Part shown: in pieces, positions 2,386 to 59,704 of the stretch
How positions within the stretch are numbered: position 1 is the first letter of the stretch
How the letters are laid out: each line of letters starts with the position of its first letter
DNA from: an uncultured delta proteobacterium
GTDB taxonomy: Bacteria; Desulfobacterota; Syntrophobacteria; BM002
Reading direction: 5' to 3'
Length of the DNA stretch: 64,000 nt
Assembly: GCA_963712115.1 (NCBI GenBank)
Contig: CAVQGX010000014.1
Coordinates: forward strand, 22,878 to 86,877
Position numbers and translations under genes: made by a program
Notes under the pieces: model-generated
The model's input: only the letters and a program-made list of their open reading frames with translations
What the model was told of the DNA's origin: nothing
Database searches by the model: none

Positions 2386-2436
2386 TAGTGGTTATCGGAC
2401 ACGCACTATTATCCTTTTGAAGATTGCCTGAGACTG

Positions 2437-3798
2437 ATGGACAAAGTGAAGCTTCTTATTATTGAAGACGATGAAAACATCCGGAGTCAATTGAAATGGT
2501 CCCTGGCGCTGGACTACGAAGTTCTTATTGCCGAGAACCGACCAGATGCTCTTGAAATCATGAGGACAAGGCGGCCAGGTTTAGCTCTCCTGGACTTAGG
2601 ACTTCCACCAAAGCCTAACAGTGTCGACGAGGGCTTTAGCACCCTGGCTGGTCTACTTGCAGCGAATCCCTTCACGAAAATAATCATCATGACCGGACAG
2701 CAGGAAGAGGAGCACGCCGTTCGGGGCATTGCTCAGGGCGCATGTGACTATTTCTCCAAACCGATACAGATCGGTGACCTCAAAGTCGTCCTAAAACGAG
2801 CCGAACATGTTTTCCATCTGGAGGAAGAAAGCAGAAAGTTACTGGAACGCGGATCCGATGTATCCTTTGAAAGTATGTTAGGTGCAAGTCAACCAATGAA
2901 GAAGGTCTTCAAGACCATCCGTAAGGTAGCCTCTACTGATGTTTCTGTTTTGATTACTGGAGAAAGCGGAACAGGCAAGGAACTTACCGGGCTCGCTCTT
3001 CACAGGTTGAGCTCGAGATCAGAAGGTCCTTTCGTAGCTATTAATTGTAGCGCTATTCCCGATACGCTTTTGGAGAGCGAGCTTTTCGGATTCGAGAAAG
3101 GAGCTTTCACTGGAGCGGAGAAACAGAAAAAAGGGCGGATTGAATTAGCTCAAGGAGGCACGCTTTTTTTGGACGAAATCGGGGATCTGTCAACTTCTCT
3201 GCAAGTCAAGTTACTCCGGTTTTTGGAAGAACGCAAGTTAGTGAGAATAGGAGGCAGAGACAATATTTCGCTGGATGTTCGGATAATCTCTGCTACTAAT
3301 AGGGATCTTCAGACCGCAGTGGAGCAGGCAAGATTTCGCAGAGACCTTTATTTTCGGCTTGCAGTTGTCACTATTCCTATGCCTCCTCTAAGAGAACGGG
3401 GAGACGACATCCTCCTCCTGGCCAGGGCTTTTCTGAAAAGGTACGTGGAAGCAACCAATAGGAATATCAATGACTTCACACCTCAAGCCCTTGACAGTCT
3501 CGCAACTTACAACTGGCCTGGAAATGTTCGGGAACTCCAAAACCGTATCAATCGTGCGGTTATCATGGCGGAAGGGAAAAAACTTACACCAATAGATCTT
3601 GAACTCGACACGTCTTTTAGCAAATACAGCGGACAGACACTCAAAGAGGCCCGTGAATCACTCGAGAGAGATCTCATCCAGCGCGCACTGACGAGAAATA
3701 CGGGCAACATTACCAGAGCCGCAGCCGAGTTGGATATCAGCCGGCCTGCACTTTATGAATTGATGAAGAAGCTGAGCATTACCAAATCGAGAACTTAG
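2437..3798 (+). CDS. prsR: PEP-CTERM-box response regulator PrsR (sigma54 enhancer-binding protein)
   Basis: REC domain with LLDLGLPP, Walker A GESGTGKE, GAFTGA, FLDEIG, WPGNVRELQN, C-terminal Fis-type HTH. Confidence 0.92.
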   Translation: MDKVKLLIIEDDENIRSQLKWSLALDYEVLIAENRPDALEIMRTRRPGLALLDLGLPPKPNSVDEGFSTLAGLLAANPFTKIIIMTGQQEEEHAVRGIAQGACDYFSKPIQIGDLKVVLKRAEHVFHLEEESRKLLERGSDVSFESMLGASQPMKKVFKTIRKVASTDVSVLITGESGTGKELTGLALHRLSSRSEGPFVAINCSAIPDTLLESELFGFEKGAFTGAEKQKKGRIELAQGGTLFLDEIGDLSTSLQVKLLRFLEERKLVRIGGRDNISLDVRIISATNRDLQTAVEQARFRRDLYFRLAVVTIPMPPLRERGDDILLLARAFLKRYVEATNRNINDFTPQALDSLATYNWPGNVRELQNRINRAVIMAEGKKLTPIDLELDTSFSKYSGQTLKEARESLERDLIQRALTRNTGNITRAAAELDISRPALYELMKKLSITKSRT

Positions 3799-10772: not shown

Positions 10773-11266
10773 GGCGAAGGGCATAGAGCATGGAGCATAG
10801 GGCATGGAGTTAGAGGTCGGAGGTCGGAGGTCAGAGGAAAGAAGTCAGATTGCGAAGTGCGAATTGAGGAAAGGCGCAAGGCGTAGGGCGCAAGGCGATT
10901 TGGGTCATTAGGCTTCGCCGTCATTAGGTCACTACGCTACGCTGTCATTTATTGTAAGAGGTAGAGGTCAGAGGTCGGAGGACAGAGGTCGGAAGACGGA
11001 GGTCAGTTTCACTAGGCACTAAGCAGTAAGCACTAGGCACAGCAAGGCGAATCGGGGACGGGGAGAGACGGAGACGCGGGGGAAAAAGGCAGAGGCCAGA
11101 TGAGGATTTCGGATTGCGAAACTGGGAACTCGCCCGAAGGGTGGGAGTCCGAAGGACAATTTAAAAGCAAGGAGACAGGAGTCAGCCCTTCGACAGGACC
11201 TGTCGACGAGCTCAGGTCGAGTCGCTCAGGCGAGTCGAGGCCCGCCCTACCAGTTGATAATACCGG

Positions 11267-11536
11267 TTAGCTTGTTTTATCTATTAGCCCCTTTTCTCGC
11301 TGTACTCTCTCGTGTAGCCATATTTTGATCAAAGCTCCTCGATCTACCCCGATTGTAGCTCTGATGCGATCGATATCATTGACTAGTTCTTCAGCAATAT
11401 CAACTGTAATACGGACCTTCTTGCCATGCCTGATGACCCTGGCCTTGGACGTGTCAATAAGGTCATGAATATCCTCACCGTCATCGAAACGTTGATCAAA
11501 CTCCTCAGTACTTTTAGCCGATCTCTTTCTCGCCAT
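11267..11536 (-). CDS. CopG/BrnA-like antitoxin
   Basis: EEFDQRFDDGEDI N-terminus and RHH-like C-terminus; overlaps brnT. Confidence 0.75.
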   Translation of the reverse strand: MARKRSAKSTEEFDQRFDDGEDIHDLIDTSKARVIRHGKKVRITVDIAEELVNDIDRIRATIGVDRGALIKIWLHERVQREKGLIDKTS

Positions 11537-11786
11537 ATAGCGTAGCCTCCTTTTTCCTGGCGCGTCTCACGGAAATGATTCGGATTGCCTTGCCACGCCA
11601 AGTAAATACCGCTGTCCAGAGCTTCTTTTGGATCTTTCCTATGAGAATGCCTCTGTTCTCAAGTGGATACGGCGGGTGGATTTCCACTCGACTATCATCC
11701 TTCCACAATTGTTTGGCGGTATCAAAATCGATACCATGCTTTATCTTGTTTGTGCGACTCTTGTCTTCGTCCCACTCGAATTCCAT
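11514..11786 (-). CDS. brnT: BrnT family toxin
   Basis: FEWDEDKSRTNKIKHGIDF...IRIISVRRA signature. Confidence 0.9.
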   Translation of the reverse strand: MEFEWDEDKSRTNKIKHGIDFDTAKQLWKDDSRVEIHPPYPLENRGILIGKIQKKLWTAVFTWRGKAIRIISVRRARKKEATLYGEKEIG

Positions 11787-12356
11787 GATGTCACTTTACT
11801 TTATTTGTACAAAAAAGCAACATATTTTGTATATATGTTCAAAAAACAACGCTTTCGTCGGTCCGAGTTACAGTGTTGAGATTAAGGGAACAGGGATCGG
11901 CGGGGAGAGGGAAGTCGGAGGTCAGTTTCACCAGGCACTAAGCAGTAAGCACTAGGCGCTCCCGCTGACGTGGTTGGAGGCAAGAATTCAGAGGTCTGAG
12001 GGCAGAGGTCGGAGGTCGGAGGACAGACTTCAGCCGGCAGCGGGCAGCAGGATGACGCGGTGAAGGGGAGAGACGGAGACGCGGCGTTGGGAGTCATTAG
12101 GCTTCGCCGTCATTAGGTCACTACGCTACGCTGTCATTTATTGTAAGAGGTAGAGGGTCAGAAGATTGCGAATTGAAGGAAGGTGTCAGGTGTCGGGTGT
12201 CAGGAGGCAGAAGGCAGAGAGTTGGAGGTTGGAGGAGCGGCCGAAGAATTTCGGAATGCGGATTGCGGATTGCGGATTTAAAAGCAAGGAGTCAGGAGAC
12301 AGAGGTTGGTCGTTTAAACCGTTGAAGTCGTTGAAATCGTTAAGGTCGTAGACTGG

Positions 12357-12572
12357 CTAAATGGCATCTCTGGAAAGCTTGTAGTTAACAGGCAACAGTC
12401 GGTCTAGATTGACATGCTTGGAGGCGTCAAGTATTTCGATGCCTATGATTTTATCTCCGTCACCGATGTCTAACACCACATCCTCAGACAGGCGCCTGTT
12501 AATAACTTCCTGCTTTCTGTCATCCAATCGGATATAAAGAAGGTCGGTTTTATCATTATATGAAACGTGCAT
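12357..12572 (-). CDS. DUF2283 family protein
   Basis: MHVSYNDKTDLLYIRL...IIGIEILDAS. Confidence 0.85.
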   Translation of the reverse strand: MHVSYNDKTDLLYIRLDDRKQEVINRRLSEDVVLDIGDGDKIIGIEILDASKHVNLDRLLPVNYKLSRDAI

Positions 12573-12573
12573 T

Positions 12574-12837
12574 TTATGCCTCCCACTTTCCGTAAAACAC
12601 ATAAACCGTAACAGTTACTATCAAATCTTCTTCCTTTACATAAAAGACCTCTACCATTTTCTGTTCATAATTTCTACCATGGCGTTCTTTTCTGAATTTA
12701 TACACTTTAGCTTTCCCAATTCTGCCGCGCTTTGCGGGTATCTCAAAGCCCGTCTCAATTACATCAGTAATTTCCTCCTCACTCGTTCCACGCTCTTCTG
12801 CTGTTTCTAGAGTATGCTGGTCAATTTGGATTCGCAT
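12574..12837 (-). CDS. DUF4258-like protein (putative toxin partner of DUF2283)
   Basis: HTLE.AEERG, C-terminal IVTVTVY; typical pairing with DUF2283. Confidence 0.7.
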   Translation of the reverse strand: MRIQIDQHTLETAEERGTSEEEITDVIETGFEIPAKRGRIGKAKVYKFRKERHGRNYEQKMVEVFYVKEEDLIVTVTVYVFYGKWEA

Positions 12838-35140: not shown

Positions 35141-35842
35141 AATGCACTGCATAGTGCCACGCTTAAGAGAATTTATACCTATATTCTATTCCTCAAGAAT
35201 CAATTCGGAGTCACTGGCCCCGCTTTTCCTCCCTACCCATAGAACCTAAAGTCAGGACCAGTTTACAGGAAGTGTGCATTACATATTAAAGAAGACAGGA
35301 GTCAGGAGAGAGTAAGGAATTTTGGAATGATGGAATGGTGTAATGTTGGGCGAAGAGCCCAGAGGTCGGAGACACCCGCCTTCGCTAAAGCTACGGCGCG
35401 GCATGGGGCATGGAGCATAGGGCGTAGGGTTAGAGGTCAGAGGATGGAGGTCGGTTTCACTAGGCACTAAGCAGTAGGCACTAGGCACAGCAAGGCGAAT
35501 CGGGGACGGGGAGAGATGGAGACGCGGAGAGGAAAAGCCAGAGGTCAGAAGTCGGAGTTCAGAGGTCAGACGTCGGAGGTCGGAGGTCAGACTTCAGCTG
35601 GCAGCAGACAGCGGGCAGCAGGATGACGCGGTGAAGGGGAGAGACGGAGACGCGGGGGAGAAAGGCAGAGGCCAGATGAGGATTTCGGATTGCGAAACTG
35701 GGAACCCGCCCGAAGGGTGGGAGTCCGAAGGACAATTTAAAAGCAAGGAGACAGGAGTCAGCCCTTCGACAGGACCTGTCGCCGAGCTCAGGTCGAGTCG
35801 CTCAGGCGAGTCGAGGCCCGCCCTACCAGTTGATAATACCGG

Positions 35843-36112
35843 TTAGCTTGTTTTATCTATTAGCCCCTTTTCTCGCTGTACTCTTTCGTGTAGCCATACT
35901 TTGATCAAAGCTCCTCGATCTACCCCGATTGTAGCTCTGATGCGATCGATATCATTGACTAGTTCTTCAGCAATATCAACTGTAATACGGACCTTCTTGC
36001 CATGTCTGATGACCCTGGACTTGGACGTGTCAATAAGGTCATGAATATCCTCACCGTCATCGAAACGTTGATCAAACTCCTCAGTGCTTTTAGCCGATCT
36101 CTTTCTGGCCAT
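35843..36112 (-). CDS. CopG/BrnA-like antitoxin (second copy)
   Basis: 2 aa differences from the 11267 copy. Confidence 0.75.
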   Translation of the reverse strand: MARKRSAKSTEEFDQRFDDGEDIHDLIDTSKSRVIRHGKKVRITVDIAEELVNDIDRIRATIGVDRGALIKVWLHERVQREKGLIDKTS

Positions 36113-36362
36113 ATAGCGTCGCCTCCTTCTTCCTGGCGCGTCTCACCGAAATGATTCGGATTGCCTTGCCACGCCAAGTAAATACCGCTGTCCAGAGCTT
36201 ATTTTGGACCTTTCCTATGACGATGCCTCTGTTCTCAAGTGGATACGGCGGGTGGATTTCCACTCGACTATCATCTTTCCACAATTGTTTGGCGGTATCA
36301 AAATCGATACCATGCTTTGTCTTGTTTGTGCGACTCTTGTCTTCATCCCACTCGAATTCCAT
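36090..36362 (-). CDS. brnT: BrnT family toxin (second copy)
   Basis: 5 aa differences from the 11514 copy. Confidence 0.9.
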   Translation of the reverse strand: MEFEWDEDKSRTNKTKHGIDFDTAKQLWKDDSRVEIHPPYPLENRGIVIGKVQNKLWTAVFTWRGKAIRIISVRRARKKEATLYGQKEIG

Positions 36363-37016
36363 GCTGTCATTTTACTTTTTTTGTACAAAAAAGCAACATA
36401 TTTTGTATATATATCCCAATAGCAACGCTATCGTCGGTCCGAGTTACAGTGTTGAGATTAAGGGAACAGGGATCGGCGGGGAGAGGGAGGTAGGAGGGTA
36501 GATAATTGCGGATTTGGAATTCAGATTGCGAAGTTATCGCTTTGCTATTGTCCGTAGTTCCACCTTAGGCTGATCAGTTGCCCGTTGCAAATGAATGGAG
36601 CATGGGGAAAGACAGCGGGAGGCAGGCAGCGGACAGCCCCATTATGTTGGAGGGTGGAGCCAGTCTTAAGAGACGCGGAGATGGGGAGAAACGGAGACGC
36701 GGCGTTGGGAGTCATTAGGCTTCGCCGTCATTAGGTCACTACGCTACGCTGTCATTTATTGTAAGAGGTAGAGGGTCAGAAGATTGCGAATTGAAGGAAG
36801 GTGTCAGGTGTCGGGTGTCAGGAGGCAGAAGGCAGAGAGTTGGAGGTTGGAGGAGCGGCCTTCGACAAGCTGAGGCCTTGAGGTTGGAGGCAAAGCCGAA
36901 GGCTGGAATGATGGAATGTTGGGCAATGAGCATGGGATAAGTAGTCAGGAGCCAGGAGACAGAGGTTGGTCGTTTAAACCGTTGAAGTCGTTGAAATCGT
37001 TAAGGTCGTAGACTGG

Positions 37017-37232
37017 CTAAATGGCATCTCTGGAAAGCTTGTAGTTAACAGGCAACAGTCGGTCTAGATTGACATGCTTGGAGGCGTCAAGTATTTCGAT
37101 GCCTATGATTTTATCTCCGTCACCGATGTCTAACACCACATCCTCAGACAGGCGCCTGTTAATAACTTCCTGCTTTCTGTCATCCAATCGGATATAAAGA
37201 AGGTCGGTTTTATCATTATATGAAACGTGCAT
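37017..37232 (-). CDS. DUF2283 family protein (second copy)
   Basis: Protein identical to the 12357 copy. Confidence 0.85.
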   Translation of the reverse strand: MHVSYNDKTDLLYIRLDDRKQEVINRRLSEDVVLDIGDGDKIIGIEILDASKHVNLDRLLPVNYKLSRDAI

Positions 37233-37233
37233 T

Positions 37234-37497
37234 TTATGCCTCCCACTTTCCGTAAAACACATAACCCGTAACAGTTACTATCAAATCTTCTTCCTTTACA
37301 TAAAAGACCTCTACCATTTTCTGTTCATAATTTCTACCATGGCGTTCTTTTCTGAATTTATACACTTTAGCTTTCCCAATTCTGCCGCGCTTTGCGGGTA
37401 TCTCAAAGCCCGTCTCAATTACATCAGTAATTTCCTCCTCACTCGTTCCACGCTCTTCTGCTCTTTCTAGAGTATGCTGGTCAATTTGGATTCGCAT
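37234..37497 (-). CDS. DUF4258-like protein (second copy)
   Basis: 2 aa differences from the 12574 copy. Confidence 0.7.
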   Translation of the reverse strand: MRIQIDQHTLERAEERGTSEEEITDVIETGFEIPAKRGRIGKAKVYKFRKERHGRNYEQKMVEVFYVKEEDLIVTVTGYVFYGKWEA

Positions 37498-39376: not shown

Positions 39377-39772
39377 ATAAACTCCCTTAAGAGGCTGTAC
39401 GATAAACTTATACTCCCCCTCCCCCCTTTATCCCCTCCCGCCAGGGGAGGGGAAAGGTGTCCTCAGAGTAAAGCACTCTTTCGCTAATAGCTAATATCAA
39501 CGTAGTCTAAAAGTAAGAATTAATCAAGTCTTAATTCTTACTTTTTTTAGTCTGTGATTGATGACTGAGACGGTTGAAGTCTGAATCAACCGCAGATTCA
39601 CTCCAGTGGAATAGGATAATTCATTCAACAGGGCAGACGCTGACATATTGTTTTTTTTGGCACGGGTCCCGCCCTGCGGGACACACGGATTTCACGGATA
39701 ACAAGAATTTCTTAACCGCAGACGGCCGCAGACCACCGCAGACTTTAAACACTTCATTGTGGACACTTTAAC

Positions 39773-39901
39773 GATCGCTCAAAAGCATAACGGGGACGTC
39801 CCGCAGTCACTAATAAGCAAGCTTATTATCGCCTGCGAGGACTCCCTTTCTCACCGATCTACTCGATCGGCTTCCCGCTGTGCGGGAGCTTTTAAGCGAT
39901 C
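39773..39901. repeat. Branched-hairpin element copy 3 (orientation A)
   Basis: GATCGCTCAAAAGC...GCTTTTAAGCGATC; apex TAATAAGCAAGCTTATTA; CCGATC/GATCGG; TCCCGC/GCGGGA. Confidence 0.85.
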
Positions 39902-40419
39902 AGTGCACTCTTATGTTCCTCCGGTTCCGACCCATTGAGATTATTGACAAGCGCAGACGAGTTTAGCAGGCAGATGACAGCGGACAGCCCCAATATGTTG
40001 GAGGTTGGAGGTGTGAGGTTGGAGGCAAGAACCCAGAGGTCAGAGGACGGAGGACAGAGGGCAGATGGCAGATTGATTTTCGTCAATTAGTCAATTCGTT
40101 GATTAGTTAATTCGTCAAATCGCCGATTGATCATTTGTTGTATTTGATTGTCTGCGGTCGACAAAAAAGGCGGGCACAGTTCAGCCGGGAGATTGTAGCT
40201 GGCAGGTTTTAACTAGGCACTTGGAACTAAGCACTTGGAACTAAGCACTAGGCACAATCTTTGGCGAGACTGGCGAGACGAGACGAGCGAGACGGGGAAA
40301 AAGATAAGGCGGGCACGAAGGCCCGCCCCATTCACAGGTAAGGGGTTAGAGGTTATAGGCAAAACCAAACTTGCTCTTGCTTGCTTCTTTTCTTGCCTCA
40401 GACCTCCAACCGTGAAATT

Positions 40420-42696
40420 TTAAACCTGATATTTTTTCCTTCTATAAATCAGCGCGTAGATACTCAGTACACTGATTATCAGCATAAAACCGAGCAGAAT
40501 CAACGTCGCGAGAGAACTCCTAACCAGGATGTAGCTCACTCCCGCAAGTGGCGTGAGCAGGACACGGACGATGGGTTGTAACCAGTCGTGCTCTTCAATG
40601 TAACTCGCTGTGTGCAGCTTCACATGGGGTTCTATGTACGTACCAGAAGCCGCGGTGGCTATAAAGCAACCACCTCCTGCACCTGAATCAGCTGCGACAG
40701 ACTCCACAACTCCACTTGGATCAACAATAACTCCATTCGCTACGCCATCGCTATCACCTTGACCACCGTCCTTAAGTTCAACTGTGACGGACTTCCCATC
40801 CGGATTAAAGGTTACGTACTGAGTGTAGTCCCGCCAACCATTGACGGTATCATAGAGGTAGAAGCTATTGGCCCCTGAAATATCTTCCGAATAGTAGACT
40901 GTGACATTTACGGTGTCACCGACCTGGTTCAAACGGAGCCGGTAGGCAGCCAGTCCGAACAAGAAGTTTTTCGGCTTATTCTTCTTGTCCAAGATCTCGG
41001 AAGGATGAATTGGCTCTAGCAGCTCAATGCTTTTAATTGAAGCGGAAGCCTTGTTGACACCGAGAGGCTTTTTGCCGGCAACGGCTGAGTGTGCAGATTT
41101 AATGACGTCTGGTTGGTCGTTATCCGCCGTGCCATCCTCATTGAGGTCAACAGTATCGTCCACCTCATTATCGTCGGGAATACCGTCGCTGTCAAAATCG
41201 ACAACACCGTTATGGGTGGTGAATTCCACCGGGTCAGACCAAGGTGATGGTTCAGAGTAAGCATCGACAAACTGGACGCTCACATTGTAGGTCGTGTTTC
41301 GATCTAAGACAGCGTGCGGAACAGGGATTTCAGTCAGGTGTTGGTTACTTACTATCTCCAAAACAACCGAAGCATCCGCAGCCTTGACAATCTGCCACTG
41401 GGTCTCTTTGTGAGTATCTCCGTTAGGATCAGAGAATGGTTCTGTCTGTACTGTGAGGAGTAAATCGGTCTCCACTTCACCATCGTAGGGGGAGGCGATA
41501 ACCGGCTGGTTAGGAGGCAGATTGGAGGCTGGGGGCTCAGCAACCTGGATTAGGGTTGTGACATTATCTGTTGCACCGTCATCATCTGTAACCGTTAGGG
41601 TAACGGTATAATTACCGGAGTTGTTATACGTGTGACTGGCGGTCACACCCGAGCCAGTTGAACTGTCACCGAAGTTCCAGGAATAGGAGACAACGCTTCC
41701 GTCAGGGTCATTTGAGCTTGATCCATTAAAAGTCACTGTCAGCGGTGCATTTCCGGATGTGGGACTTGCCGTAAAGCTTGCCGTCGGCGCTTGGTTGGGG
41801 ATGGGTGTTGTCGCGACCTGGATTAGGGTTGTGACATTATCTGTTGCACCGTCATCATCTGTAACCGTTAGGGTAACGGTATAATTACCGGAGTTGTTAT
41901 ACGTGTGACTGGCGGTCACACCCGAGCCAGTTGAACTGTCACCGAAGTTCCAGGAATAGGAGACAACGCTTCCGTCAGGGTCATTTGAGCTTGATCCATT
42001 AAAAGTCACTGTCAGCGGTGCATTTCCGGATGTGGGACTTGCCGTAAAGCTTGCCGTCGGCGCTTGGTTGGGGATGGGTGTTGTCGCGACCTGGATTAGG
42101 GTTGTGACATTATCTGTTGCACCGTCATCATCTGTAACCGTTAGGGTAACGGTATAATTACCGGAGTTGTTATACGTGTGACTGGCGGTCACACCCGAGC
42201 CAGTTGAACTGTCACCGAAGTTCCAGGAATAGGAGACAACGCTTCCGTCAGGGTCATTTGAGCTTGATCCATTAAAAGTCACTGTCAGCGGTGCATTTCC
42301 GGATGTGGGACTTGCCGTAAAGCTTGCCGTCGGCGCTTCGTTTGTACCAGCAGGATAGAGGTGTTCTTCATTGGAATTCCCACTTTCGCCATAATCATTA
42401 AACGCTCGAACAACGAAATGATAGGTAGTACTTTCATCCAGTCCGGGGATAATGCATGTAGTGGTAGTGCCCTGCCAATCAGGTAAGGTGTAATCGTAAT
42501 TTTGCCCGTCTTCACGGTAGAACAGCCTGTAACCCTCAGCTCCGCTGCTGGGATCCCAAGCCAGGGTGACGTCAACCGCGGCAAAGGTCAGGGAGGCGCA
42601 AAAGAGTATATAAAGAAAGACAGAAAAAGCTAAAAGAAAAATTATATATTTTATATTGTAACTTTTTCTATACGTATAACCAAAATTAGCCCCCAT
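40420..42696 (-). CDS. Surface protein: FN3 + 3 PKD + Ig-like + choice-of-anchor U + CFI-box-CTERM
   Basis: VTLAWDPS/YHFVVRAFN FN3; PKD YSWNFGD x3; LKDGGQGDSDGVANGVIVDP; GGGCFIATAA; start placed after RBS AGAGG and the sigma54 site. Confidence 0.85.
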   Translation of the reverse strand: MGANFGYTYRKSYNIKYIIFLLAFSVFLYILFCASLTFAAVDVTLAWDPSSGAEGYRLFYREDGQNYDYTLPDWQGTTTTCIIPGLDESTTYHFVVRAFNDYGESGNSNEEHLYPAGTNEAPTASFTASPTSGNAPLTVTFNGSSSNDPDGSVVSYSWNFGDSSTGSGVTASHTYNNSGNYTVTLTVTDDDGATDNVTTLIQVATTPIPNQAPTASFTASPTSGNAPLTVTFNGSSSNDPDGSVVSYSWNFGDSSTGSGVTASHTYNNSGNYTVTLTVTDDDGATDNVTTLIQVATTPIPNQAPTASFTASPTSGNAPLTVTFNGSSSNDPDGSVVSYSWNFGDSSTGSGVTASHTYNNSGNYTVTLTVTDDDGATDNVTTLIQVAEPPASNLPPNQPVIASPYDGEVETDLLLTVQTEPFSDPNGDTHKETQWQIVKAADASVVLEIVSNQHLTEIPVPHAVLDRNTTYNVSVQFVDAYSEPSPWSDPVEFTTHNGVVDFDSDGIPDDNEVDDTVDLNEDGTADNDQPDVIKSAHSAVAGKKPLGVNKASASIKSIELLEPIHPSEILDKKNKPKNFLFGLAAYRLRLNQVGDTVNVTVYYSEDISGANSFYLYDTVNGWRDYTQYVTFNPDGKSVTVELKDGGQGDSDGVANGVIVDPSGVVESVAADSGAGGGCFIATAASGTYIEPHVKLHTASYIEEHDWLQPIVRVLLTPLAGVSYILVRSSLATLILLGFMLIISVLSIYALIYRRKKYQV
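41543..42338 (-). repeat. 273-bp tandem repeat x about 2.9 (PKD domains)
   Basis: CCTGGATTAGGG recurs at 41544, 41817 and 42090; copies look identical by eye. Confidence 0.95.
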
Positions 42697-42767
42697 TTGA
42701 TCACCTCTATGCCATTGAATTATCAAGATTTTTATTGTTTGACTAATATTTTGTGCCTTATATAAGA

Positions 42768-42782
42768 GCAATGGGGGTGCCA
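42768..42782 (-). promoter_or_regulatory. sigma54 promoter
   Basis: Minus strand TGGCACCCCCATTGC, a consensus match. Confidence 0.8.
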
Positions 42783-43240
42783 AAGACGGAAGGGATAGGG
42801 CATGAAGCATGGGGCATGGAGCGTATTTTCTTGTGATTACGGGAGTATATAGAGCAGATTGTGGTAGGATTTGTTATACTTTGGGGGTGGTTTTGGGGGG
42901 AGTTTTTGCAGAAAAGTATGTCTAAGTATACAATTATGGCTCTATGCCATGTAATGTCGGGTACGGTGTATACAAAACGGTGAGTATCAAGCGAGATGGC
43001 GCACGGCTCAAGGCGCAGGGCGTAGGGCGAAGCCCAGCTGGCAGCAGACAGCGGACAGCTTGCAGCAAGACAAAGCTCATAGCTCTAAGCTGAAAGCTCA
43101 AAGAGAGAAGTCTTAGAAATCGTGGAAGGCGTGCTATTGAGCCGGAATAGGCTTTTGGGAGGTATTACTTCAGGACAAGAAATGGTATATTAACGGCAGT
43201 ACGGAATGAGGGGATAATAATAGCAACAAAAGCAGAGGAC

Positions 43241-43462
43241 ATGGATATGAAATTTCATGTTGTGCTAACACCGGCAGATGAGGGAGGGTACAATGTCTCC
43301 GTGCCTGCTCTAGAGGGATGTTTTACCCAGGGTGAAACTGAAAAAGAGGCGTTAGAGAATGCCAAAGAGGCGATTCTCTGCTATCTCGAGGGTCTAGAAA
43401 AAGTTAATGAGATTAAGGCTCACCCCGGCGCCAATTTGAGAGAAGTAGAAGTCACTTTATGA
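43241..43462 (+). CDS. hicB: HicB family antitoxin
   Basis: [31 protein letters not shown]. Confidence 0.9.
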
Positions 43463-43674
43463 GCAAAACTTTCTCTGGAAGACAGGTAGTCAAAGCTCTG
43501 CGACGAACAGGGTTTGTCGTTGATCATCAGCGAGGTAGCCACATTTTCCTACATAATCTCGAGAAAAACATTTCAGTTGTTGTGCCTCTACATAAAGAAC
43601 TCAAGAAAGGTACCTTGCACAGTATATTGAAAAAAGCTGGATTGACACTCGATCAGCTGAAAGAACTTGTATAA
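43459..43674 (+). CDS. hicA: HicA family toxin
   Basis: GF..HQRGSH...[15 protein letters not shown]. Confidence 0.9.
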
Positions 43675-44871: not shown

Positions 44872-45186
44872 TCTATCCTCCCAGATGTTATGTGGTCATT
44901 ATAATAGTCACATTTATTCTGTCAATCCCGAAAGCTGAGATTAACCGCAGACGGACGCAGACCACCGCAGACAGAGACAGAAGGCTTGGCCCTTCGGGCC
45001 TCAAAGTTGGAGGCAAAAACCCAGAGTTCAGATGACAGACGAGAATTGCGAATTGATTAGACGGCGAGAAAGGGCCAAGGCACTTGTCATTTCGAATTGC
45101 GGATTGCGGATTTGGGAAGGCATAGGGTCAAACCGAAATATTGGAATTATGATAATGGTGGAATGCTGAGTAGACGAAGAGGAATC

Positions 45187-46023: not shown

Positions 46024-47184
46024 TTAGGAGAGCCATTTGGGTGGAGAGGTGAGGAGGAATTTTTCCACTGGTATCCCTTGAGCTCCTACCAACAATTTCT
46101 TCGTCACTCGAAATTCGGTCGAGAAGACCTCAATGCCCGGCAAAGTAACTTTTCTGCGTCCGCTTTTAACTTCCAGGGCCACCAGAGATTTTCGTCGGGA
46201 GAGTACGAAGTCCACTTCTCGATTACGGCTGGACCAATAGAAAAGCTCAATATTCTCACCTCTGAGACCGTTCATCAAGGCAGCCCCAATGGCTGATTCA
46301 ACTAGCCTGCCCCAGAAATCGGTATCCTGCTTCGCTTCCCCCAGGTTAAGCTGAGATTGAGCTGTAATCAACGCTGTATTGAGCACTAGAAGTTTAGGGC
46401 TTGACGCTCTTTGCCGAACACGCTGACCAGCATATTTAGACAATCCCGCAAGAAGGCCCGCACCCTCAAGTAAATTGAGATAGTGAGCAAGTGTGGTGGT
46501 GTTGCCGGCATCCTGGAGCTGGCCAAGCATCTTCTGATACGAGAGAATTTGGCCCGAGTAGGAACAGCCGAGTTCAAATAGGCGACGGAGAAGTGCCGGT
46601 TTGTCAACCCGGGTCATCAGCAAAATATCTCGTGAGATTGTAGTCTCTATAAGGGCGTCCTTGATGTAGTTAGACCATCTTTTTTGATCATTGATCAGAT
46701 CGGCGCCACCGGGATAGCCTCCAAAGAATATATATTCATCTAAACCCCAATCGAAAGCCTCGCGCATTTCCGCAAATGACCAGTGCGTAACCGGGATTAC
46801 TTCGAATCGTCCCGCGAGGCTTTCGGTCAAGCCCCGCTGTACCAATAGTGGGGATGACCCCAACAGCATCACGTGTAGTGGAAGACCTTTGGCTGTATCC
46901 TCGTCCCACAACCTTTTCACCGTTTCTGACCAGCCGTCGATTTTTTGGGCCTCGTCCATGACAAATAATGCGTTCTTTTCAGATTCCACCTTAAGCCTGG
47001 CGATTTCCCACTGCTGCTCAATCCAGGTTCGATCCTTCAAGGTGGGCTCGTCCGCAGAGGCATAGTGGCTGGGGATCTCAAGATCAGCCATAACCTGATG
47101 TGCGAGGGTAGTCTTGCCCGATTGTCTTGGTCCGTAGAGTACTTGCATGAACCGTCTGGACTCAGACATTCTTTCCATTAGCAT
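46024..47184 (-). CDS. AAA_14 / DUF4143 ATP-binding protein
   Basis: GPRQSGKTT, DEAQ, LLGSS, ESLAGRF, GGYPG, EVDFVL..EVK. Confidence 0.9.
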   Translation of the reverse strand: MLMERMSESRRFMQVLYGPRQSGKTTLAHQVMADLEIPSHYASADEPTLKDRTWIEQQWEIARLKVESEKNALFVMDEAQKIDGWSETVKRLWDEDTAKGLPLHVMLLGSSPLLVQRGLTESLAGRFEVIPVTHWSFAEMREAFDWGLDEYIFFGGYPGGADLINDQKRWSNYIKDALIETTISRDILLMTRVDKPALLRRLFELGCSYSGQILSYQKMLGQLQDAGNTTTLAHYLNLLEGAGLLAGLSKYAGQRVRQRASSPKLLVLNTALITAQSQLNLGEAKQDTDFWGRLVESAIGAALMNGLRGENIELFYWSSRNREVDFVLSRRKSLVALEVKSGRRKVTLPGIEVFSTEFRVTKKLLVGAQGIPVEKFLLTSPPKWLS

Positions 47185-48647: not shown

Positions 48648-49011
48648 GGCTTCATCCAGCAAATAGTAAAATCCAGGATCTACAATCCACTGTTTCGGCA
48701 AATATGCAAAAATTATGCAGGCTTATAGATTTTCCATTTTTACTTGTCTTTTCAAATAGTTGATGGATTAGGCACTGGCAGGCAAGTACGAAATGTAGTC
48801 GTCACATTGGGTAATTAAATGCCAATTGTGGAAAAAAAATGGATCAGTTTGGCCGGTTGAGCCGGTTTAGCCCGCTAGGAGCTTTCAACGGACAGCTGGC
48901 AGCAAAAGAAATTTAACCGCAGAGAGCGCTGAGAGCGCAGAGAAGACCACCTAACCGCAGACCCACGCAGACGAACGCAGACTTCAAGAATTCTCTCGGA
49001 GAATAAGCAAC

Positions 49012-49136
49012 GATCGCTTAAGGCCACCATGTGGCGTCCCGATTGAAAGCATCGGGAACTCATCCTTGTCATCAGTCACTGCCCATTGCTGCCGATGTAA
49101 AACATCGGTGCCAGATTCGCTGGCCCTTAAGCGACC
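49012..49136. repeat. Branched-hairpin element copy 5 (chimera: B-type left half, A-type right half)
   Basis: Two CCGAT/ATCGG hairpins and only the 3' arm of the long stem. Confidence 0.8.
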
Positions 49137-49854
49137 ATTACGATGGCATATTCACTCTGTCTCTTTAGACAAAGACTATTGACAGGCGCAGACGTCTCAT
49201 TAGACAGGATATACAGGATAGATAACATAAGAAGCTCCTACCATTGAAATGAAGGGGAGCCACTGAGGTATTTAAGGAGCTCTCGGAGTCTAGGCATGGG
49301 GCATAGGGGATGGGGCCCTTTGGGTCATTTCTTCGCCCTCGCTTCGCTCCGCTCAGTCCCGCAAGCGGGTCCCTAGTTCGGCTTCGCCGTCATTAGGTCA
49401 TTACGCTACGCTGTCATTTATCGTAATAGGTAGAGGGCCAGAAGATTTCGGATTGCGGATTTGGGATATGGGATGTGAGATAATTATCGCAGAGCGCAGA
49501 GCGTTAAGGGCGCAAGGCACTAGGTTCAAGGCAAGGGATCAAGGGCTGATCTATCGACTTCTACGATTTCTACGACTTATACGGTTTTTACGACTTCCGC
49601 TTTGAGCTTTCAGCTTAGAGCCATGAGTTTTACCTCTGCTGTCCTCTGATCTCCGACTTCCGACCTCTGGGTTCTTGCCTCTAACCTCTAACCTCTAACC
49701 TCCAACATCAACCTTGAGGCTTAGGTCTTTTGCTTTGCTCACATTGCTATTAACACTGATATCTGGTAATTAATGATCTGAAAAAGAGGAAGTACCAGTT
49801 AGAATCGACATTCAGCCGGATATGAAGCATAGAGCAATAGATATAGTGGAGTAA

Positions 49855-50450: not shown

Positions 50451-50620
50451 AATAATCTACCCTGCCCTCTTTTTATCTTACTAGCGGCTACCCGCCACTT
50501 AGTACTTACCTAGATCCGGAATCCAAAATGCTGCCTGCTGACAGCTGGCAGTAAAAGAAATTTAACCGCAGACGGACGCAGACCGCCGCAGACCTAAAAG
50601 CCTTTGAGAGAATAGGCAAA

Positions 50621-50747
50621 GATCACTTAAGCCCAGAATGGAGAGTGCCTGATTCGAAGAATAAGTAAACTCCTTCTTGTCATCAGGCACTCCACATTCC
50701 CAACGATCTAACCGATCGGCGCCAGCGTTGCTGGCATTTAGGCGATC
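50621..50747. repeat. Branched-hairpin element copy 6 (orientation A)
   Basis: GATCACTTAA...TTAGGCGATC; GAGTGCCTGAT/ATCAGGCACTC stem; CGATC/GATCG; GCCAGC/GCTGGC. Confidence 0.8.
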
Positions 50748-50965
50748 CAGCTATTTAGCCTATTCTCCCATCATTGAAGTGATTTGGAGCTCGCTGAGGT
50801 ATTGGGAACTCTCGGAGTTTTAAAAAGCTGGAGAGCATGGAGTATGGGGCATAGGGTTAGAGGACAGAGGACAGGTAATAGGATTTCGGATTTAAAAACT
50901 GCCTACCGGGATTTCTGAAATAAACGATTTAAACGGTTTCGACGATTTCAAAGATTTCAACGGTT

Positions 50966-51528: not shown

Positions 51529-51768
51529 TGAACACTCCTATTAAGATCGATATTTTAAAACATTATTTAATACATAATAATATACGCTATCACATACATA
51601 AAAATCAACCCCGAAAGAATGACAGTGTGAATTTATTGCAACCAAATCACGTAGGCGCCGGGTTTACCTGCACAGATTATTAACCGCAGAGAACACAGAG
51701 CACGCAGAGAAAACCACTTAACCGCAGACGAACGCAGACGAGAAAGCTTCAATGAACTTGAAAGCAAC

Positions 51769-51896
51769 GATCGCTTGAAACCCAAATGGGAAGCTCTCGC
51801 AGCCATCGATAAGCCAGCTTGTCGCTGCCAGCGAGGACTTCCCATTTACGCCGATGTAGTCCATCGGCGCCAGCTTCGCCAGGCTTTCAAGCGATC
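51769..51896. repeat. Branched-hairpin element copy 7 (orientation A)
   Basis: GATCGCTTGAAA...TTTCAAGCGATC (compensatory TTG/CAA); AAATGGGAAG/CTTCCCATTT; CGCCGATG/CATCGGCG. Confidence 0.85.
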
Positions 51897-52404
51897 ACTG
51901 CCTTTACTTATTCTCACAATTCCGACTATTGACATTGTTGACAGTCGCAGACTAAAGGAATTGGCAAGAGCTTGAATCCAGAATTCAGGAGAAAAAGATC
52001 AAAATCGAGTGCCTCACATGGCGGCCTAAACTACTTCGACTATTTCAAATAGTTAAACGTTTTCCCGCTTTGAGCTTTCAGCTTAGAGCCATGAGCTTTG
52101 CCTCTGCCATCCTCTGATCTCCGACTTCCGACCTCTGACATCTGGGTTCTTGCCTCCAACCTCAAGCGAAGCGCCCCTCCAACCTCCAACAGCAACCTTG
52201 GGCCTTGCGCCCTGAGCCTTATGCCGTTTCTTTCCAGTTACAGCTATGGTTTGAAAAAGTGCACCTGCCAATTTTTCCAGGCTCCTTTGGCCCTCATATC
52301 TAAGTGTTTGTATTTGTTTATTTTTATTTAGATGAAGGAGTAAAAAATCTTTTTTAGGCATACTTTCGGCCTGCTTTTCGGATGGGAATGGAATTTGCAT
52401 TAGC

Positions 52405-53367: not shown

Positions 53368-53680
53368 TAACCTCTACTAGACACAAATCCGAATTAACTG
53401 CAGACGATTTGCTAGCGGGCAGCGGACAGCTGACAGCAAAAGATAATTAACCGCAGAGAACGCTGACCCGCACGCCTCGCCTGAGCGGCCCGTCCGCCTC
53501 GGCTGAAGCCTCGCGATGCCGGGCGGGCTCGCGATGGCGGGCTGGGAGCGCAGAGAAGAAGATTCACCACGGAGTTACACGGAAAGTCACGGGCTTTTTA
53601 ACCGCAGACGGACGCAGACAGATTGGTACCGCATAAGTGCATTGGTCTGCGGTTAGAAATAAAAAGGCTGGCACTGAGTC

Positions 53681-53959
53681 CTAATATGCGACGCTGCGGT
53701 GGGAGGCAGCAAGCATGAACACTATTTTCTCGTCATCATCGATTTCATAGAAGAAGCGGTAGGCGCCGATTCGATATCGCCAGGTGTCTGGATCGAAACC
53801 CTTTAGCTTCTTGATATTTGGTCCGAAGTGTGGATGCTCACGCAATTGAGGGTAGACATAATCGCGAAGTTTCTGTGCCACTTTGGGCTGGCCGGAACTG
53901 CCAATACGGCGTAAGTCATCTTGAAACTGTTCGGTTTCAAAAATCCGGTACTTACTCAA
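53681..53959 (-). CDS. RelE/ParE family toxin
   Basis: PHFGPNIKKL..WRYRIGAYRFFY..HR..AY. Confidence 0.88.
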   Translation of the reverse strand: MSKYRIFETEQFQDDLRRIGSSGQPKVAQKLRDYVYPQLREHPHFGPNIKKLKGFDPDTWRYRIGAYRFFYEIDDDEKIVFMLAASHRSVAY

Positions 53960-54194
53960 CGAAACTCCCTTTACGGAGACGAGCCTCCTGCGAACCCTTC
54001 TCGATACGTTTCATGAGCTCTTTGCTTGCCATGATCTCTGCTACCTCGACATCATCGGCGAATTGTTGCTCGCGGACTTTGGCCAAGGCAGCAGTCTCAA
54101 TTAGGTTCGACAGTGACCGATTTTCGGCCTTAGCTGCTTCCAAGAAAGTGATGTACGTTTCGTCACTCAGTCTAAGAGTTACCGTCTTAGGCAT
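53952..54194 (-). CDS. RHH-type antitoxin
   Basis: KTVTLRLSDE...AAKAENRSLSNLI; overlaps the toxin. Confidence 0.8.
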   Translation of the reverse strand: MPKTVTLRLSDETYITFLEAAKAENRSLSNLIETAALAKVREQQFADDVEVAEIMASKELMKRIEKGSQEARLRKGSFVE

Positions 54195-54403
54195 TTTGCA
54201 CCTACCTTGTTATTCTTTTTTATTCTATTGTATTCACAACGAAGAAAATGTCAACTGCAGACAAAAGAATTCACCACGGAGTCGCACGGAAAGTCACGGG
54301 CTTTTTAACCGCAGACGAACGCAGACCACCGCAGACGTTTCATTAGACAGGATTAACAGGATGTACAGCATAAGATAAACGAGAGAAGTCGGATTGATGC
54401 CAG

Positions 54404-54535
54404 GATCGCTTAAAGTCACAATGGTGAACCCACAGATGGGAAAACGAGCGAGCTAGTTTTCCTATCTTAGGGTTCCCCCTTTGTCCCGATGATTCCATCG
54501 GGACCACCCGCCGTGCGAGTGACCCTTAAGCGAAT
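54404..54535. repeat. Branched-hairpin element copy 8 (orientation A), inside an insertion at 54337-54586
   Basis: GATCGCTTAA...TTAAGCGAAT; apex GAGCGAGCT; GTCCCGATG/CATCGGGAC. Confidence 0.85.
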
Positions 54536-54727
54536 GTTACCTTGACATACTCACCCACTTTTTTACAGTGAATAATTATTGACATTCGCAGACAGATTGG
54601 TACCGCATAAGTGCATTGGTCTGCGGTTAGAAATAAAAAGGCAGGCGCGGTGGCCTGCCCAACTGGATTCTGACTACTGGCTGCTAACTACTTACTCTAT
54701 GCGCTATGCGCTCTGCTCTATGCGAAT

Positions 54728-55255
54728 TTAGGGCATAAATCGTTCGCCCGCAGGTTCCATAAGGGGTTCTGCCACGGGATCCATGAGAGGTTCGTAACGT
54801 GGTATTTCAAGAGGGGCAACCCAGATTTCCACCCTTATGTTAATTGAAGTAACCTGCATGTTGATAAGACAGATTCGGCTCTCCTTTTGGTAGAAGAGCA
54901 AGGTCCGAGTATATTTGAGACTGGCCTGCAACATCCAGCCGTTCTTCGCCATGGTCCCCTCAAAGAACTTGAGTAGCGACTCGTAGTCTACATTCCCGTT
55001 ATACACCAGGTTGCCCGTAGCGAATTCAGCAGTCATGTAAACAAAGGACTCTTTCGCATCTAAGTCGAGTTCTTTAGGTATGGGAACGTCGGGGAATTCG
55101 CGGATGGTCACGATTGGGGTGGGGCCTTCTTCCCCGGTGGGTTCTGTGTGAACCGTCTTGGTACAGCCTGAACATAGCAAAAAGAGGGTTAGTGCAATAC
55201 CGACGATCATTGACTTTTGCTGGCAAATGATCATGGTTATCTCCTTCTGTGTCAT
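54728..55255 (-). CDS. Hypothetical lipoprotein
   Basis: Lipobox CSGC; FPDVPIP..L...F...M..NGW. Confidence 0.7.
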   Translation of the reverse strand: MTQKEITMIICQQKSMIVGIALTLFLLCSGCTKTVHTEPTGEEGPTPIVTIREFPDVPIPKELDLDAKESFVYMTAEFATGNLVYNGNVDYESLLKFFEGTMAKNGWMLQASLKYTRTLLFYQKESRICLINMQVTSINIRVEIWVAPLEIPRYEPLMDPVAEPLMEPAGERFMP

Positions 55256-58277: not shown

Positions 58278-58488
58278 AGCATAGAGTGAGAAGCCAGTAG
58301 TCAGTAGCCAGTAGTAATTTCGAAATTTGAAACTGAAACTCCGCAATCCGAAATCATCTCCCTATTCCCCTCGCCTTCCTAAATCCACGAAGTACGCAAA
58401 AAACGCGAATAGAGGAATCTGAATTCTTTAGACAGGATTAACAGGATATACAGGATTAGAGAAGCAGAATGAACTGAGTCTATTGAAG

Positions 58489-58618
58489 GATCGCTTAAGG
58501 GCTGAATGGGAAGGCCTGGTAGACGAAAGTCAGCTAGCTCACTTTCGTCTACCAGGCTTTCCCATTGGTCCCGATGTGCCATCGGACACCCCGCTTCGCG
58601 GGGGGCACTTAAGCGATC
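58489..58618. repeat. Branched-hairpin element copy 11 (orientation A)
   Basis: GATCGCTTAAG...CTTAAGCGATC; GCCTGGTAGACGAAAG/CTTTCGTCTACCAGGC. Confidence 0.88.
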
Positions 58619-58745
58619 TCTACTCTCTGCGTGCTCTGTGTTCTCTGCGGTTAACAATCCGTGCAATCCGCGTGTCCCGCGGAGTGGGACCCGTGCCAAA
58701 AATAGTCTGCGTCTGTCTGCGTGGGTCTGCGGTGAGATGGGAGGA

Positions 58746-59162: not shown

Positions 59163-59423
59163 GGTGGTGCCCCCCATCGGGTTATTATGAGATTTTTTCA
59201 CAAGCCTACAGTATTAAGCGACAATTAACACAATTTGTCAAGGAAAAGTGGTAAAGGGGTGAACGGTGAACGGTGAACGGTAACCAGTTGAGATAACAAA
59301 CTTAATTAATTGCCTGATTTGTCAAAATCAAGCTGACTGTTTTCAGCTGGCAGCAAGAGAAATCTAACCGCAGACGGCCGCAGACCACCGCAGACAAAAA
59401 ATTTCTTACGCAGAATAGACAAT

Positions 59424-59550
59424 GATAGCCTGAAAGCGCAATGGGAGCACCTGCAGCCATCAATAAGCAAGCTTATTATTGCCTGCCGCCACCCCCATTC
59501 CTGCCGATGTAATCCATCGGCATCCCGCCTCGCGGGACTTTCAAGCGATC
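59424..59550. repeat. Branched-hairpin element copy 12 (orientation A)
   Basis: GATAGCCTGAAAG...CTTTCAAGCGATC; AATAAGCAAGCTTATT; TGCCGATG/CATCGGCA; TCCCGC/GCGGGA. Confidence 0.82.
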
Positions 59551-59704
59551 ATTATCCATATTCACTGAATTTTCGCACCTGAAGAAGTATTGACATACGC
59601 GGACTTTTCGACGTCCTGGTCTGCGGCTGGAAATAAAAAGCGAGCACAGAGGCCCGCTCTAGTACGTCTATCGTGCACAGTTTGTGGTGCTCAGTGCATA
59701 GTGT

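Follow-up and report, generated by a model that had tools for sequence, protein, structure and literature searches.

Filled and empty copies of a gene-less repeat hairpin around a toxin-antitoxin pair in an uncultured deltaproteobacterium

Introduction

How does one copy of an intergenic repeat come to hold a folded DNA module that a second copy nearby lacks? The question is raised by a 64,000-nucleotide stretch of an uncultured delta proteobacterium (here the window; positions 22,878 to 86,877 of the forward strand of contig CAVQGX010000014.1, assembly GCA_963712115.1), in which two blocks of short repeated words, A and B, lie on either side of a toxin-antitoxin (TA) gene pair. Block A is unbroken; block B holds, between copies of the heptamer CGCAGAC, a 250-bp unit with a branched, four-way-junction palindrome. 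The original prediction for this locus took block A as an unoccupied target, the repeated heptamer as a target duplication, and the TA pair as an excisable cassette. We report that blocks A and B are copies of a gene-less repeat hairpin within a family of inverted word-array arms that normally bracket genes of the GxxExxY family (PF13366), and that block A is best read as a deletion derivative of the filled form. Modules of this kind may well be exchanged by recombination between short direct words without a dedicated enzyme, a reading to which we give a probability of roughly 0.55.

The reference assembly (G000; the window contig is its C14) comprises 4.9 Mb in 70 contigs and is 94% complete, with an estimated contamination of 5.99%. 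Genomes compared with it carry labels of the form G0xx or G1xx.

Results

Two copies of one hairpin, one with a cargo unit

Direct reading and alignment place block A, unbroken, at 53562-53668. When block A was searched against the whole assembly with BLAST, only two further pieces matched, and these are the two ends of block B: a left piece, L (58 bp, 94.8% identical [55/58], 54269-54326, E = 1.2e-19), and a right piece, R (56 bp, 100% identical [56/56], 54587-54642, equivalent to 53613-53668, E = 6.8e-23). On the block A query the two pieces overlap by exactly the heptamer CGCAGAC (53613-53619). Between L and R, block B has one extra 10-mer (54327-54336) followed by the 250-bp unit. Alignment and BLAST thus agree with the predicted recurrence, insert and additional 10-mer, the left match starting at 54269 rather than 54270. 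The parts of the two blocks and their surroundings are as follows.

53406-53561, plus strand: upstream modules, CGCAGAG-type words and a GC-rich hairpin (repeat families D13 and D16)
53562-53668, plus strand: block A, a cargo-less hairpin (sequence reading, alignment, BLAST)
53568-53594, plus strand: array of three CACGGA-type words in block A
53600-53619, plus strand: two AACCGCAGAC units in block A
53620-53644, plus strand: 25-nt centre of block A
53645-53654, plus strand: inverted arm GTCTGCGGTT of block A, then an A-rich extension
54269-54336, plus strand: left part of block B, with three CACGGA-type words (54275-54301) and three AACCGCAGAC-type units (54307-54336)
54337-54586, plus strand: 250-bp cargo unit, with ACAGGAT-type words (54347-54371), the four-way-junction palindrome and a tail containing TTGACA (54579-54584)
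54587-54642, plus strand: right part of block B (R), with CGCAGAC (54587-54593), a 25-nt centre, the inverted arm GTCTGCGGTT (54619-54628) and an A-rich extension
54639-54660, minus strand: terminator-like hairpin 3' of a lipoprotein gene (54728-55255, minus strand), its T-run formed by the A-rich end of R

Block A is therefore a gene-less, cargo-less hairpin of what we call the CRCAGAC arm type. Its left arm consists of helically spaced 10-mers of the form AAC-CGCAGAC, two or three in number in such blocks, and its right arm of the same word inverted. The terminal inverted repeats TTTTTAACCGCAGAC and GTCTGCGGTTAGAAA form a 15-bp stem with one mismatch, and as single-stranded DNA the segment 53594-53660 folds at -12.6 kcal/mol (z = -3.7). 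Block B differs in carrying a cargo module of spacer, four-way-junction palindrome and tail, bounded by its left arm and by an additional direct copy of the word. We considered using the terminator T-run within R to tell which block was copied from which. This was dropped, since two further copies in the window, a and j, have the same A-rich extension after their right arm.

The junction that makes block A empty is read from the assembly; no contig crosses it in four public runs, all of them contig sets (the best run contains 0.20 of the sampled words, and joints with sides shorter than 30 nt were left unused). One might therefore ask whether the contig is a mixture of strains, with block A, or the order of block A, TA pair and block B, present in no single cell. 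The bin has 70 contigs and some estimated contamination, and strain contigs show other adjacencies: one joins the unit to R and the toxin gene, and in another the gene before block A is joined to block B. We nevertheless think an artefact very unlikely. The repeats are only 56 to 58 bp long, the A and B copies can be told apart because L differs between them at 3 positions, and a 7-bp word should not be able to create a false join at usual k-mer sizes. Further cargo-less arms also exist, at 44946 in the window and in relatives.

One word and one frame recur across the window

The window contains the heptamer 41 times, where chance predicts 5.06 and the highest count in 100 shuffles was 11, and 18 of the 20 tandem CGCAGAC-N3-CGCAGAC sites in the genome lie on this contig. 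A more specific pattern, TTGACA-NN-CGC(A/G)GAC, is found 5 times in the whole genome, always on this contig and on the plus strand. Each of these sites lies 41 to 45 nt past a branched element and is preceded by two or three AACCGCAGAC units, as had been predicted for the shared frame. The order is constant: the AACCGCAGAC units come first, then a spacer, then the element with a tail of about 45 nt after it that ends in TATTGACA-NN, and last a further CGCAGAC. The spacer measures about 28 nt in 4 of the 5 copies and is longer, with ACAGGAT words, in copy f. The copies and related arms in the window are listed below.

39717-39958, plus strand: frame copy a, with arm of three words, element at 39768-39905 and TTGACA-NN-CGCAGAC
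44946-44972, plus strand: second cargo-less CGCAGAC arm, three words with no element after them
48956-49193, plus strand: frame copy c, same frame
50567-50751, plus strand: copy d, arm of three words and element, without the right-hand TTGACA-NN-CGCAGAC
51723-51952, plus strand: frame copy e, same frame with an arm of two words
54310-54593, plus strand: frame copy at block B, same frame
59369-59632, plus strand: frame copy j (frame to 59604), then a short centre and the inverted arm GTCTGCGGCTGG

Arms of this type usually carry cargo, since 6 of the 10 CGCAGAC arrays in the window have an element within the next 70 nt. The frame extends beyond this genome as well, with 13 matches in 8 of 18 genus genomes (against 1 for a reversed control pattern); other genomes of the genus that have it are G006, G004, G005, G001, G016, G007 and G011. 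The original prediction proposed collecting other filled sites to define the target and the length of the duplication. In eight units the homology stops sharply at the word on both sides, and the sequence past the right-hand word is different in each.

The cargo is a DNA palindrome cluster

The branched element is about 135 nt long and comprises an outer stem (GATCGCTTAAG/CTTAAGCGATC), a long hairpin, a CCGAT-N-ATCGG hairpin and a CCCGC-N4-GCGGG hairpin. Of the 42 pairs predicted from an alignment of 14 copies, 25 show compensatory changes. Searched with a covariance model made from this alignment (R1, matches counted at E < 1e-7), the genome yielded 33 distinct copies, 12 of which are on this contig, all within the window; the unit of block B matches at 54399-54539 with 114.5 bits. 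Of 21 genomes from the same family, 18 carried the element; among genomes from five other families of the class the count was 0 of 39. When species-representative genomes were scanned for its pattern, the hits lay mainly in Desulfobacteraceae, Syntrophobacterales, Desulfatiglandales and Deltaproteobacteria metagenome-assembled genomes.

Conserved structure of this kind could mark a gene for a structured noncoding RNA, with the unit as its transcription unit and the filled and empty sites as gain or loss of that gene. The covarying pairs, promoter-like hexamers in the tail and RNA-library contigs that touch the element would fit such a gene. However, the stems of 86 distinct sequences hold 3031 Watson-Crick cells with 114 G-U and 131 A-C, so that G-U is no commoner than A-C, and, folded as DNA, neither strand of the window copy has an edge over the other (-36.5 and -36.8 kcal/mol; z = -8.5 and -7.7). 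Copies occur in both orientations and in gene gaps of every kind, whether divergent, convergent or tandem. Rfam 15 gave 0 matches at the gathering threshold across the whole window and, at E values up to 5, microRNA-hairpin noise only. The RNA contigs are matches to a multicopy repeat and may be DNA carry-over. Given the compensatory pairs together with the balance of G-U and A-C and the equal folding of both strands, we read the element as a DNA palindrome cluster rather than a strand-specific RNA, and regard an RNA gene as highly improbable.

The copies are old: their median pairwise identity is 0.65 across the 33 in the genome, and 0.94 is reached by a single pair. The block B unit is 0.75 identical to its best paralog, and no close donor copy exists in the genome.

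Two further observations concern these elements. The tail of the block B unit contains a promoter-like site at 54542-54569 (TTGACA, 16-nt spacer, TACAGT; 10/12 consensus matches) directed at the convergent lipoprotein gene. Elsewhere in the genome, pairs of elements in the same orientation, about 300 to 700 bp apart, lie inside a single CACAGAG-type bracket (C31:162538-163035, 174902-175733 and 345616-346100; C1:18707-19199; C9:52446-52879). The gap holds a GxxExxY gene in one pair; in the others it is short and may be a remnant.

The filled form is the older one

Had the unit been inserted into a site like block A, the empty form should be the older state; comparison with relatives points the other way. 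In G006, the closest relative found (flanking genes 92% and 84% identical), the orthologous gap contains neither the TA pair nor block A. It contains an arm of three words, the unit, and AAATTATTGACATC-CGCGGAC-AGAATCTTG, homologous to AATTATTGACATT-CGCAGAC-AGATTGG of the window; the filled junction there reads ATTATTGACAT-CGCGGAC-AGA. Two more distant genomes, G005 (gene identity to the window about 75%) and G001 (for which we take the same figure), show an order of block-A-like upstream modules, CACGGA array, CACGAAG array, arm of three words, unit, TTGACATTCGCAGAC and an R-like centre; the modules that precede this arm set are homologous to 53406-53561. The unit of G016, 80% identical to that of the window, is likewise followed by TTGACATTCGCAGAC. 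In a contig of public run X2 (record 18, 651 nt) the unit (54330-54586) runs straight into R and the toxin gene, which means that site A itself is filled there. This contig has 26 differing letters in the 408-nt piece covering R and the toxin, and 23 differences plus 14 gaps in the unit piece.

The filled form is therefore ancestral at this locus. The duplication that produced blocks A and B is recent, and much younger than the filled junction, because R and L are 56/56 and 55/58 identical between the blocks, whereas the equivalent of R in G006 is strongly diverged.

A single 267-bp deletion, from the second word of the block B arm (54320-54326) to the right-hand word (54587-54593), gives AACCGCAGAC-GAACGCAGAC-AGATTGG, which is block A but for one base. 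An insertion would require in addition the extra 10-mer and a donor copy, which the genome does not contain, and block A is accordingly best read as a deletion derivative. The idea of block A as an unoccupied target does not survive these comparisons: the filled form is present in G006, G005, G001 and the X2 contig, no donor was found, and one deletion suffices. The second CGCAGAC is a word of the repeat arm itself and need not be a target duplication. We found no consistent duplication outside the arms, and the orthologous gaps of relatives are occupied by other repeats and offer no clean empty site.

Other sites show the same kind of junction. G006 has full palindromic doubles here and at the copy j locus, in the order arm of three words, unit, tail-word, short centre, inverted word-tail, inverted unit and inverted arm of three words. 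Both loci have an empty right half in the window, GTCTGCG being followed directly by GTTAG or GCTGG with the junction in the word, and the right halves are also empty in G005 and G001. The two right-half units of G006 are each other's closest relatives (0.80 identity). CGCAGAC-type junctions thus recur between A and B, between the right halves of B and j and their G006 counterparts, between site A and the X2 contig, and at an 857-bp variable segment described below. Of the predicted insertion or excision at a CGCAGAC core, the core stands, as the junctions recur in this word and eight units end at it; the polarity of insertion does not, as the filled form is older.

Three further candidates for clean presence/absence sites were rejected. 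The G006 gap corresponding to element i (58484-58622) holds other modules; the stretch from copy c through a PemK/RHH pair to copy e is not cleanly deleted in G012, which has a different mosaic there; and a target duplication at the GxxExxY gene of C46 in G000 is unreadable, the empty gaps of relatives being filled with other word repeats.

The TA pair lies in a variable, recombination-prone stretch

The pair between the two blocks, predicted to be of the RHH-RelE type, encodes a PF05016 toxin and its antitoxin. The genes overlap by 8 nt at the toxin start and, as small overlapping genes with family domains (the antitoxin matches being weak), have the features of a type II TA system.

53681-53959, minus strand: ParE/RelE-family toxin, 92 amino acids (PF05016, E = 2.8e-10)
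53952-54194, minus strand: antitoxin, 80 amino acids, with weak ribbon-helix-helix-type matches (VAPB_antitox PF02697, 8.5e-5; DUF6290 PF19807, 6.6e-4)
54227-54254, minus strand: promoter-like site of the TA operon (TTGACA, 16-nt spacer, TACAAT; 11/12 consensus matches)
53396-53405, plus strand: AACTGCAGAC, left bounding 10-mer of the 857-bp segment (sequence and contig joints)
54253-54262, plus strand: AACTGCAGAC, right bounding 10-mer of the 857-bp segment (sequence and contig joints)

In contigs of X2 (side 44, with 9 shared letters) and of X1 (side 35), position 53395 is followed by 54253 and 53398 by 54257. Missing from these strains is an 857-bp segment comprising the upstream modules, block A and the TA pair, and the breakpoints fall in the direct repeat AACTGCAGAC. 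None of the X1 contigs covers 53624-53731. Homologs of the TA pair, 79 to 83% identical in DNA, occur in G008, G014 and G004 in other surroundings; at the DNA level none was found in G006 (61% complete) or G012 (83% complete). In G004, about 120 nt separate the end of the toxin gene from a unit with TTGACAGG-CGCAGAC. In G012 (L086, C21:15000-29000), the segment from the lipoprotein gene to the gene for penicillin-binding protein 5 (PBP5) is inverted relative to the window and ends in repeat-bearing gaps, and another repeat mosaic stands in place of the stretch with a DUF5615 gene and the PemK/RHH pair. Because strain contigs and relatives differ in its presence and G012 is rearranged, the TA pair counts as a variable cassette, set in a stretch prone to recombination. 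That much of the predicted excisable cassette holds. The breakpoints, however, are at 53396-53405 and 54253-54262 and not at the blocks, and the contigs of the four public runs contained no excision circle distinguishable from an alternative strain arrangement.

TA pairs are common cassettes of integrons, and this stretch has some of the look of an integron: at least seven TA-type loci lie at 37 to 54 kb of the window, eight CGCAGAC arms in one orientation part TA pairs and single genes over 39.7 to 54.3 kb, and the block is an imperfect palindrome ending in GTTAGAA. The genome also encodes a genuine integron integrase, IntI (C27:2356-3300; TIGR02249, 486.9 bits against a cut-off of 265), which might move the TA pair as a cassette between attC-like blocks. 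We consider this quite unlikely. The integron's own attC sites are about 115 bp long, nearly identical to each other and unrelated in sequence to the blocks, and they lie only beside intI (C27:1-1760), none being present on C14. The block cores TTTTAAC and GTTAGAA each miss the outermost position of RYYYAAC and GTTRRRY. Housekeeping genes that are syntenic in relatives (a DEAD-box helicase gene and that for PBP5) stand between the arms, and the same arms bracket GxxExxY genes far from any integron.

Some neighboring features deserve mention in their own right. The integron at C27:1-3300 has intI at 2356-3300 and at least four classical attC sites of about 115 bp, with small cassettes, up to the contig end. 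A HicB/HicA pair (window 43241-43674; PF15919, PF07927) is found within the TA-rich region. In G004:C193 (L089:2455-2790), a homolog of the TA pair carries a 340-bp insertion between the toxin and antitoxin genes that holds an array of three CACAGAG words and a GC-rich hairpin.

The arms belong to a family that brackets GxxExxY genes

All five PF13366 genes (TIGR04256, GxxExxY) of G000 lie between inverted arrays of three 9- to 10-nt words. The words are CGCAGAG at one gene, CACGAAG at two, and CACAGAG at two, where the gene has a branched element beside it on one side or on both. We scored an arm as matching when at least 3 inverted 7-mers were shared between the two flanks of a gene, and used mismatched flank pairs as the control. 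Matching arms were present at 33 of 50 GxxExxY genes (13/23 in the genus and 20/27 in a sample of the phylum) compared to 291 of 2450 mismatched pairs. The arm word thus varies from gene to gene and agrees between the two flanks of each gene.

The word arrays of blocks A and B are of the same types as those around genes, which include CACGGA, CACGAAG, CGCAGAG and ACAGGAT. L of block A is a left arm of the CACGGA type, whose arms surround genes in G007, G003, G014 and G159, and the ACAGGAT words are arms in G108. Brackets of the CRCAGAC type enclose GxxExxY genes in G156 and in G004:C389. In the latter, a hairpin and the gene are followed by an internal direct arm of two words, a branched element and an inverted arm of three words. 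Cargo modules parted by direct copies of the arm word are therefore a regular feature, and block A is such a bracket without cargo. Blocks A and B have no GxxExxY gene between their arms and are therefore gene-less derivatives.

At one orthologous intergenic slot, G000 (C46:9416-9766) and G005 have a GxxExxY gene, while G016, G012, G017 and G004 have short tandem words only; G007 (C192, L179:2063-2482) has there a 23S_rRNA_IVP (PF05635) gene with inverted word arms of its own.

Compared by sequence with solved structures, the GxxExxY protein gave no meaningful match (best E = 0.64). Its function is listed as unknown in the part of PMC3424549 available to us. [quoted passage not shown]

Enzyme or slippage

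The association with GxxExxY genes raises the possibility that the nuclease acts in trans, recognizing CRCAGAC words and cutting and joining there, so that the unit and the TA segment excise and integrate precisely. Several observations fit. In all eight copies the homology ends sharply at the word, with different right flanks, and in at least five independent comparisons of presence and absence the junction falls in a word of this type. From one GxxExxY gene lineage to another the arm words vary, yet they match across the flanks of each gene, as specific recognition would lead one to expect. In G004:C389 a gene and a unit share one CRCAGAC bracket with an internal direct arm, the same gene type occupies a nonorthologous place in G002, and the 857-bp indel also speaks for it. 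On the other side, none of the five GxxExxY genes of this 94%-complete assembly has CGCAGAC arms, near-identical copies that would signal recent movement are absent, and the public contigs contain neither a circle nor a new-insertion junction. No biochemical activity is known for the family. We hold such a word-specific enzyme to be possible and worth keeping in mind, while on balance not expecting it. A broader form of the idea is more doubtful still: the word arrays would be recognition sites of GxxExxY recombination enzymes, and the phased arms of three words would be slots for the exchange, deletion and duplication of cargo, independent of the integron. What fills the slots would then be the nuclease gene itself, four-way-junction palindromes or TA pairs, a proposal we likewise offer only tentatively.

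Recombination between short direct words without a dedicated enzyme is the reading we prefer. A module would be gained or lost through recombination between direct copies of the word, most likely by replication slippage across a strongly folding palindrome. Recombination among dispersed repeats would have placed the block on both sides of the TA pair, and a recent copy of the block would have lost its module by the 267-bp deletion to become block A, although the order of these events could differ.

Several points weigh against this reading. The sharp ends of the eight units, with right flanks that all differ, would also be expected of a site-specific element. For slippage between 10-bp repeats, an indel of 857 bp is long. 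The right halves of B and j are filled in G006 and empty here and in G005 and G001, and the 80% identity of the two G006 units could mean gain. The empty junction of block A has the assembly as its one witness, and no slippage event was observed, in public contig runs that contain at most 0.20 of the sampled words.

GxxExxY/PF13366 is a very large family, and to it this locus adds a graded series, from the full double of G006 through the half-filled loci B and j to the empty hairpin A, in which every junction falls in the arm word. It also adds a lineage-restricted four-way-junction cargo and TA pairs between arms of the same orientation. The filled/empty series, the junction cargo and the link to TA pairs are what is new here. 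Whether a nuclease is needed or plain slippage suffices, either answer would explain how these sediment bacteria build and reshuffle their unusually repeat-rich intergenic DNA. As regards annotation, the locus shows the many tandem 7- to 10-nt words of these genomes to be remnants of one kind of element.

Other repeats and transfers in the window

Three further observations were made in the window. Direct repeats 96 to 100% identical and 24.6 kb apart (11040-12586 and 35616-37246) bracket IS1595, IS3 and IS630 transposase genes together with exosortase genes. Three tandem 273-bp copies (95 to 100% identical; 41540-42358) lie inside a PKD-domain gene (40420-42810, minus strand). A DUF4143/AAA_14 ATPase gene (46024-47184) is 93% identical to its counterpart in G010, compared to 74 to 78% for housekeeping genes, a difference that suggests recent transfer within the genus.

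Discussion

Which known system does this locus resemble? Deletion between short direct repeats that flank a palindrome is the product of replication slippage in classical Escherichia coli work. Here, too, a 7-bp direct repeat flanks a strongly self-pairing 250-bp insert and the product keeps one copy of the repeat. The present case differs in that an enzyme could equally account for the repeated use of one word.

Integron arrays of attC sites and TA cassettes are similar in having imperfect palindromes of one orientation between single genes and TA pairs, and in their variable TA content. They differ in that the real attC sites of this genome are another sequence family on another contig, and in that conserved chromosomal genes stand within the present array.

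Among 23S rRNA intervening sequences, those with an open reading frame place a small, selfish-looking gene within a long stem of inverted flanks. The GxxExxY brackets are built in a similar way, and in G007 a PF05635 gene with word arms occupies a GxxExxY slot; here, however, the arms are intergenic rather than in rRNA, and the blocks are gene-less.

MITEs share the terminal inverted repeats seen in block A. The ends of the IS630, IS1595 and IS3 elements in the window do not match the arms, the gene-bearing partners being GxxExxY loci, and the copies, with their median identity of 0.65, do not form the near-identical families of MITEs.

Extragenic palindrome doublets forming hairpins (REPINs) and their associated tyrosine transposases (RAYTs) offer a nearer parallel. 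As described by Bertels and Rainey in 2011 (PMC3116915), REPINs are short, extragenic inverted doublets that fold as single-stranded hairpins, many of them gene-less, and the small cognate gene is flanked by the same repeats, with the repeat type tracking the gene lineage. In our system the flanked gene is a GxxExxY gene with a PD-(D/E)XK fold and not a Y1 HUH transposase, the arms are about three tandem 9- to 11-nt words and not one palindrome, and the cargo of the hairpins is interchangeable and can be a gene or a four-way junction or be absent. None of the four PF01797 genes in the genome adjoins a tandem array of these words. A direct link to RAYTs was rejected, as the RAYT-like Y1 transposase gene at C20:238180-238446 has GC-rich palindromic hairpins of its own, unrelated to the arms.

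Finally, bacterial interspersed mosaic elements of E. coli (BIME), their neisserial counterparts (NIME/Correia) and the pneumococcal BOX, RUP and SPRITE repeats form mosaic clusters (PMC10969869). Such clusters, like ours, draw on few modules in variable order and number, with nesting, changes in subunit copy number and rearrangements. Those families lack the word arrays phased at about 10 bp, the four-way-junction module and the link to GxxExxY. With no RAYT that carries these repeats and no transposase partner that has matching ends, the system, one of non-autonomous hairpin repeats tied to a small flanked gene, falls outside the definitions of both REPIN/RAYT systems and such mosaic clusters. 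Yet, for all that it departs from the defining features of each, it works most like REPIN/RAYT systems and mosaic repeat clusters.

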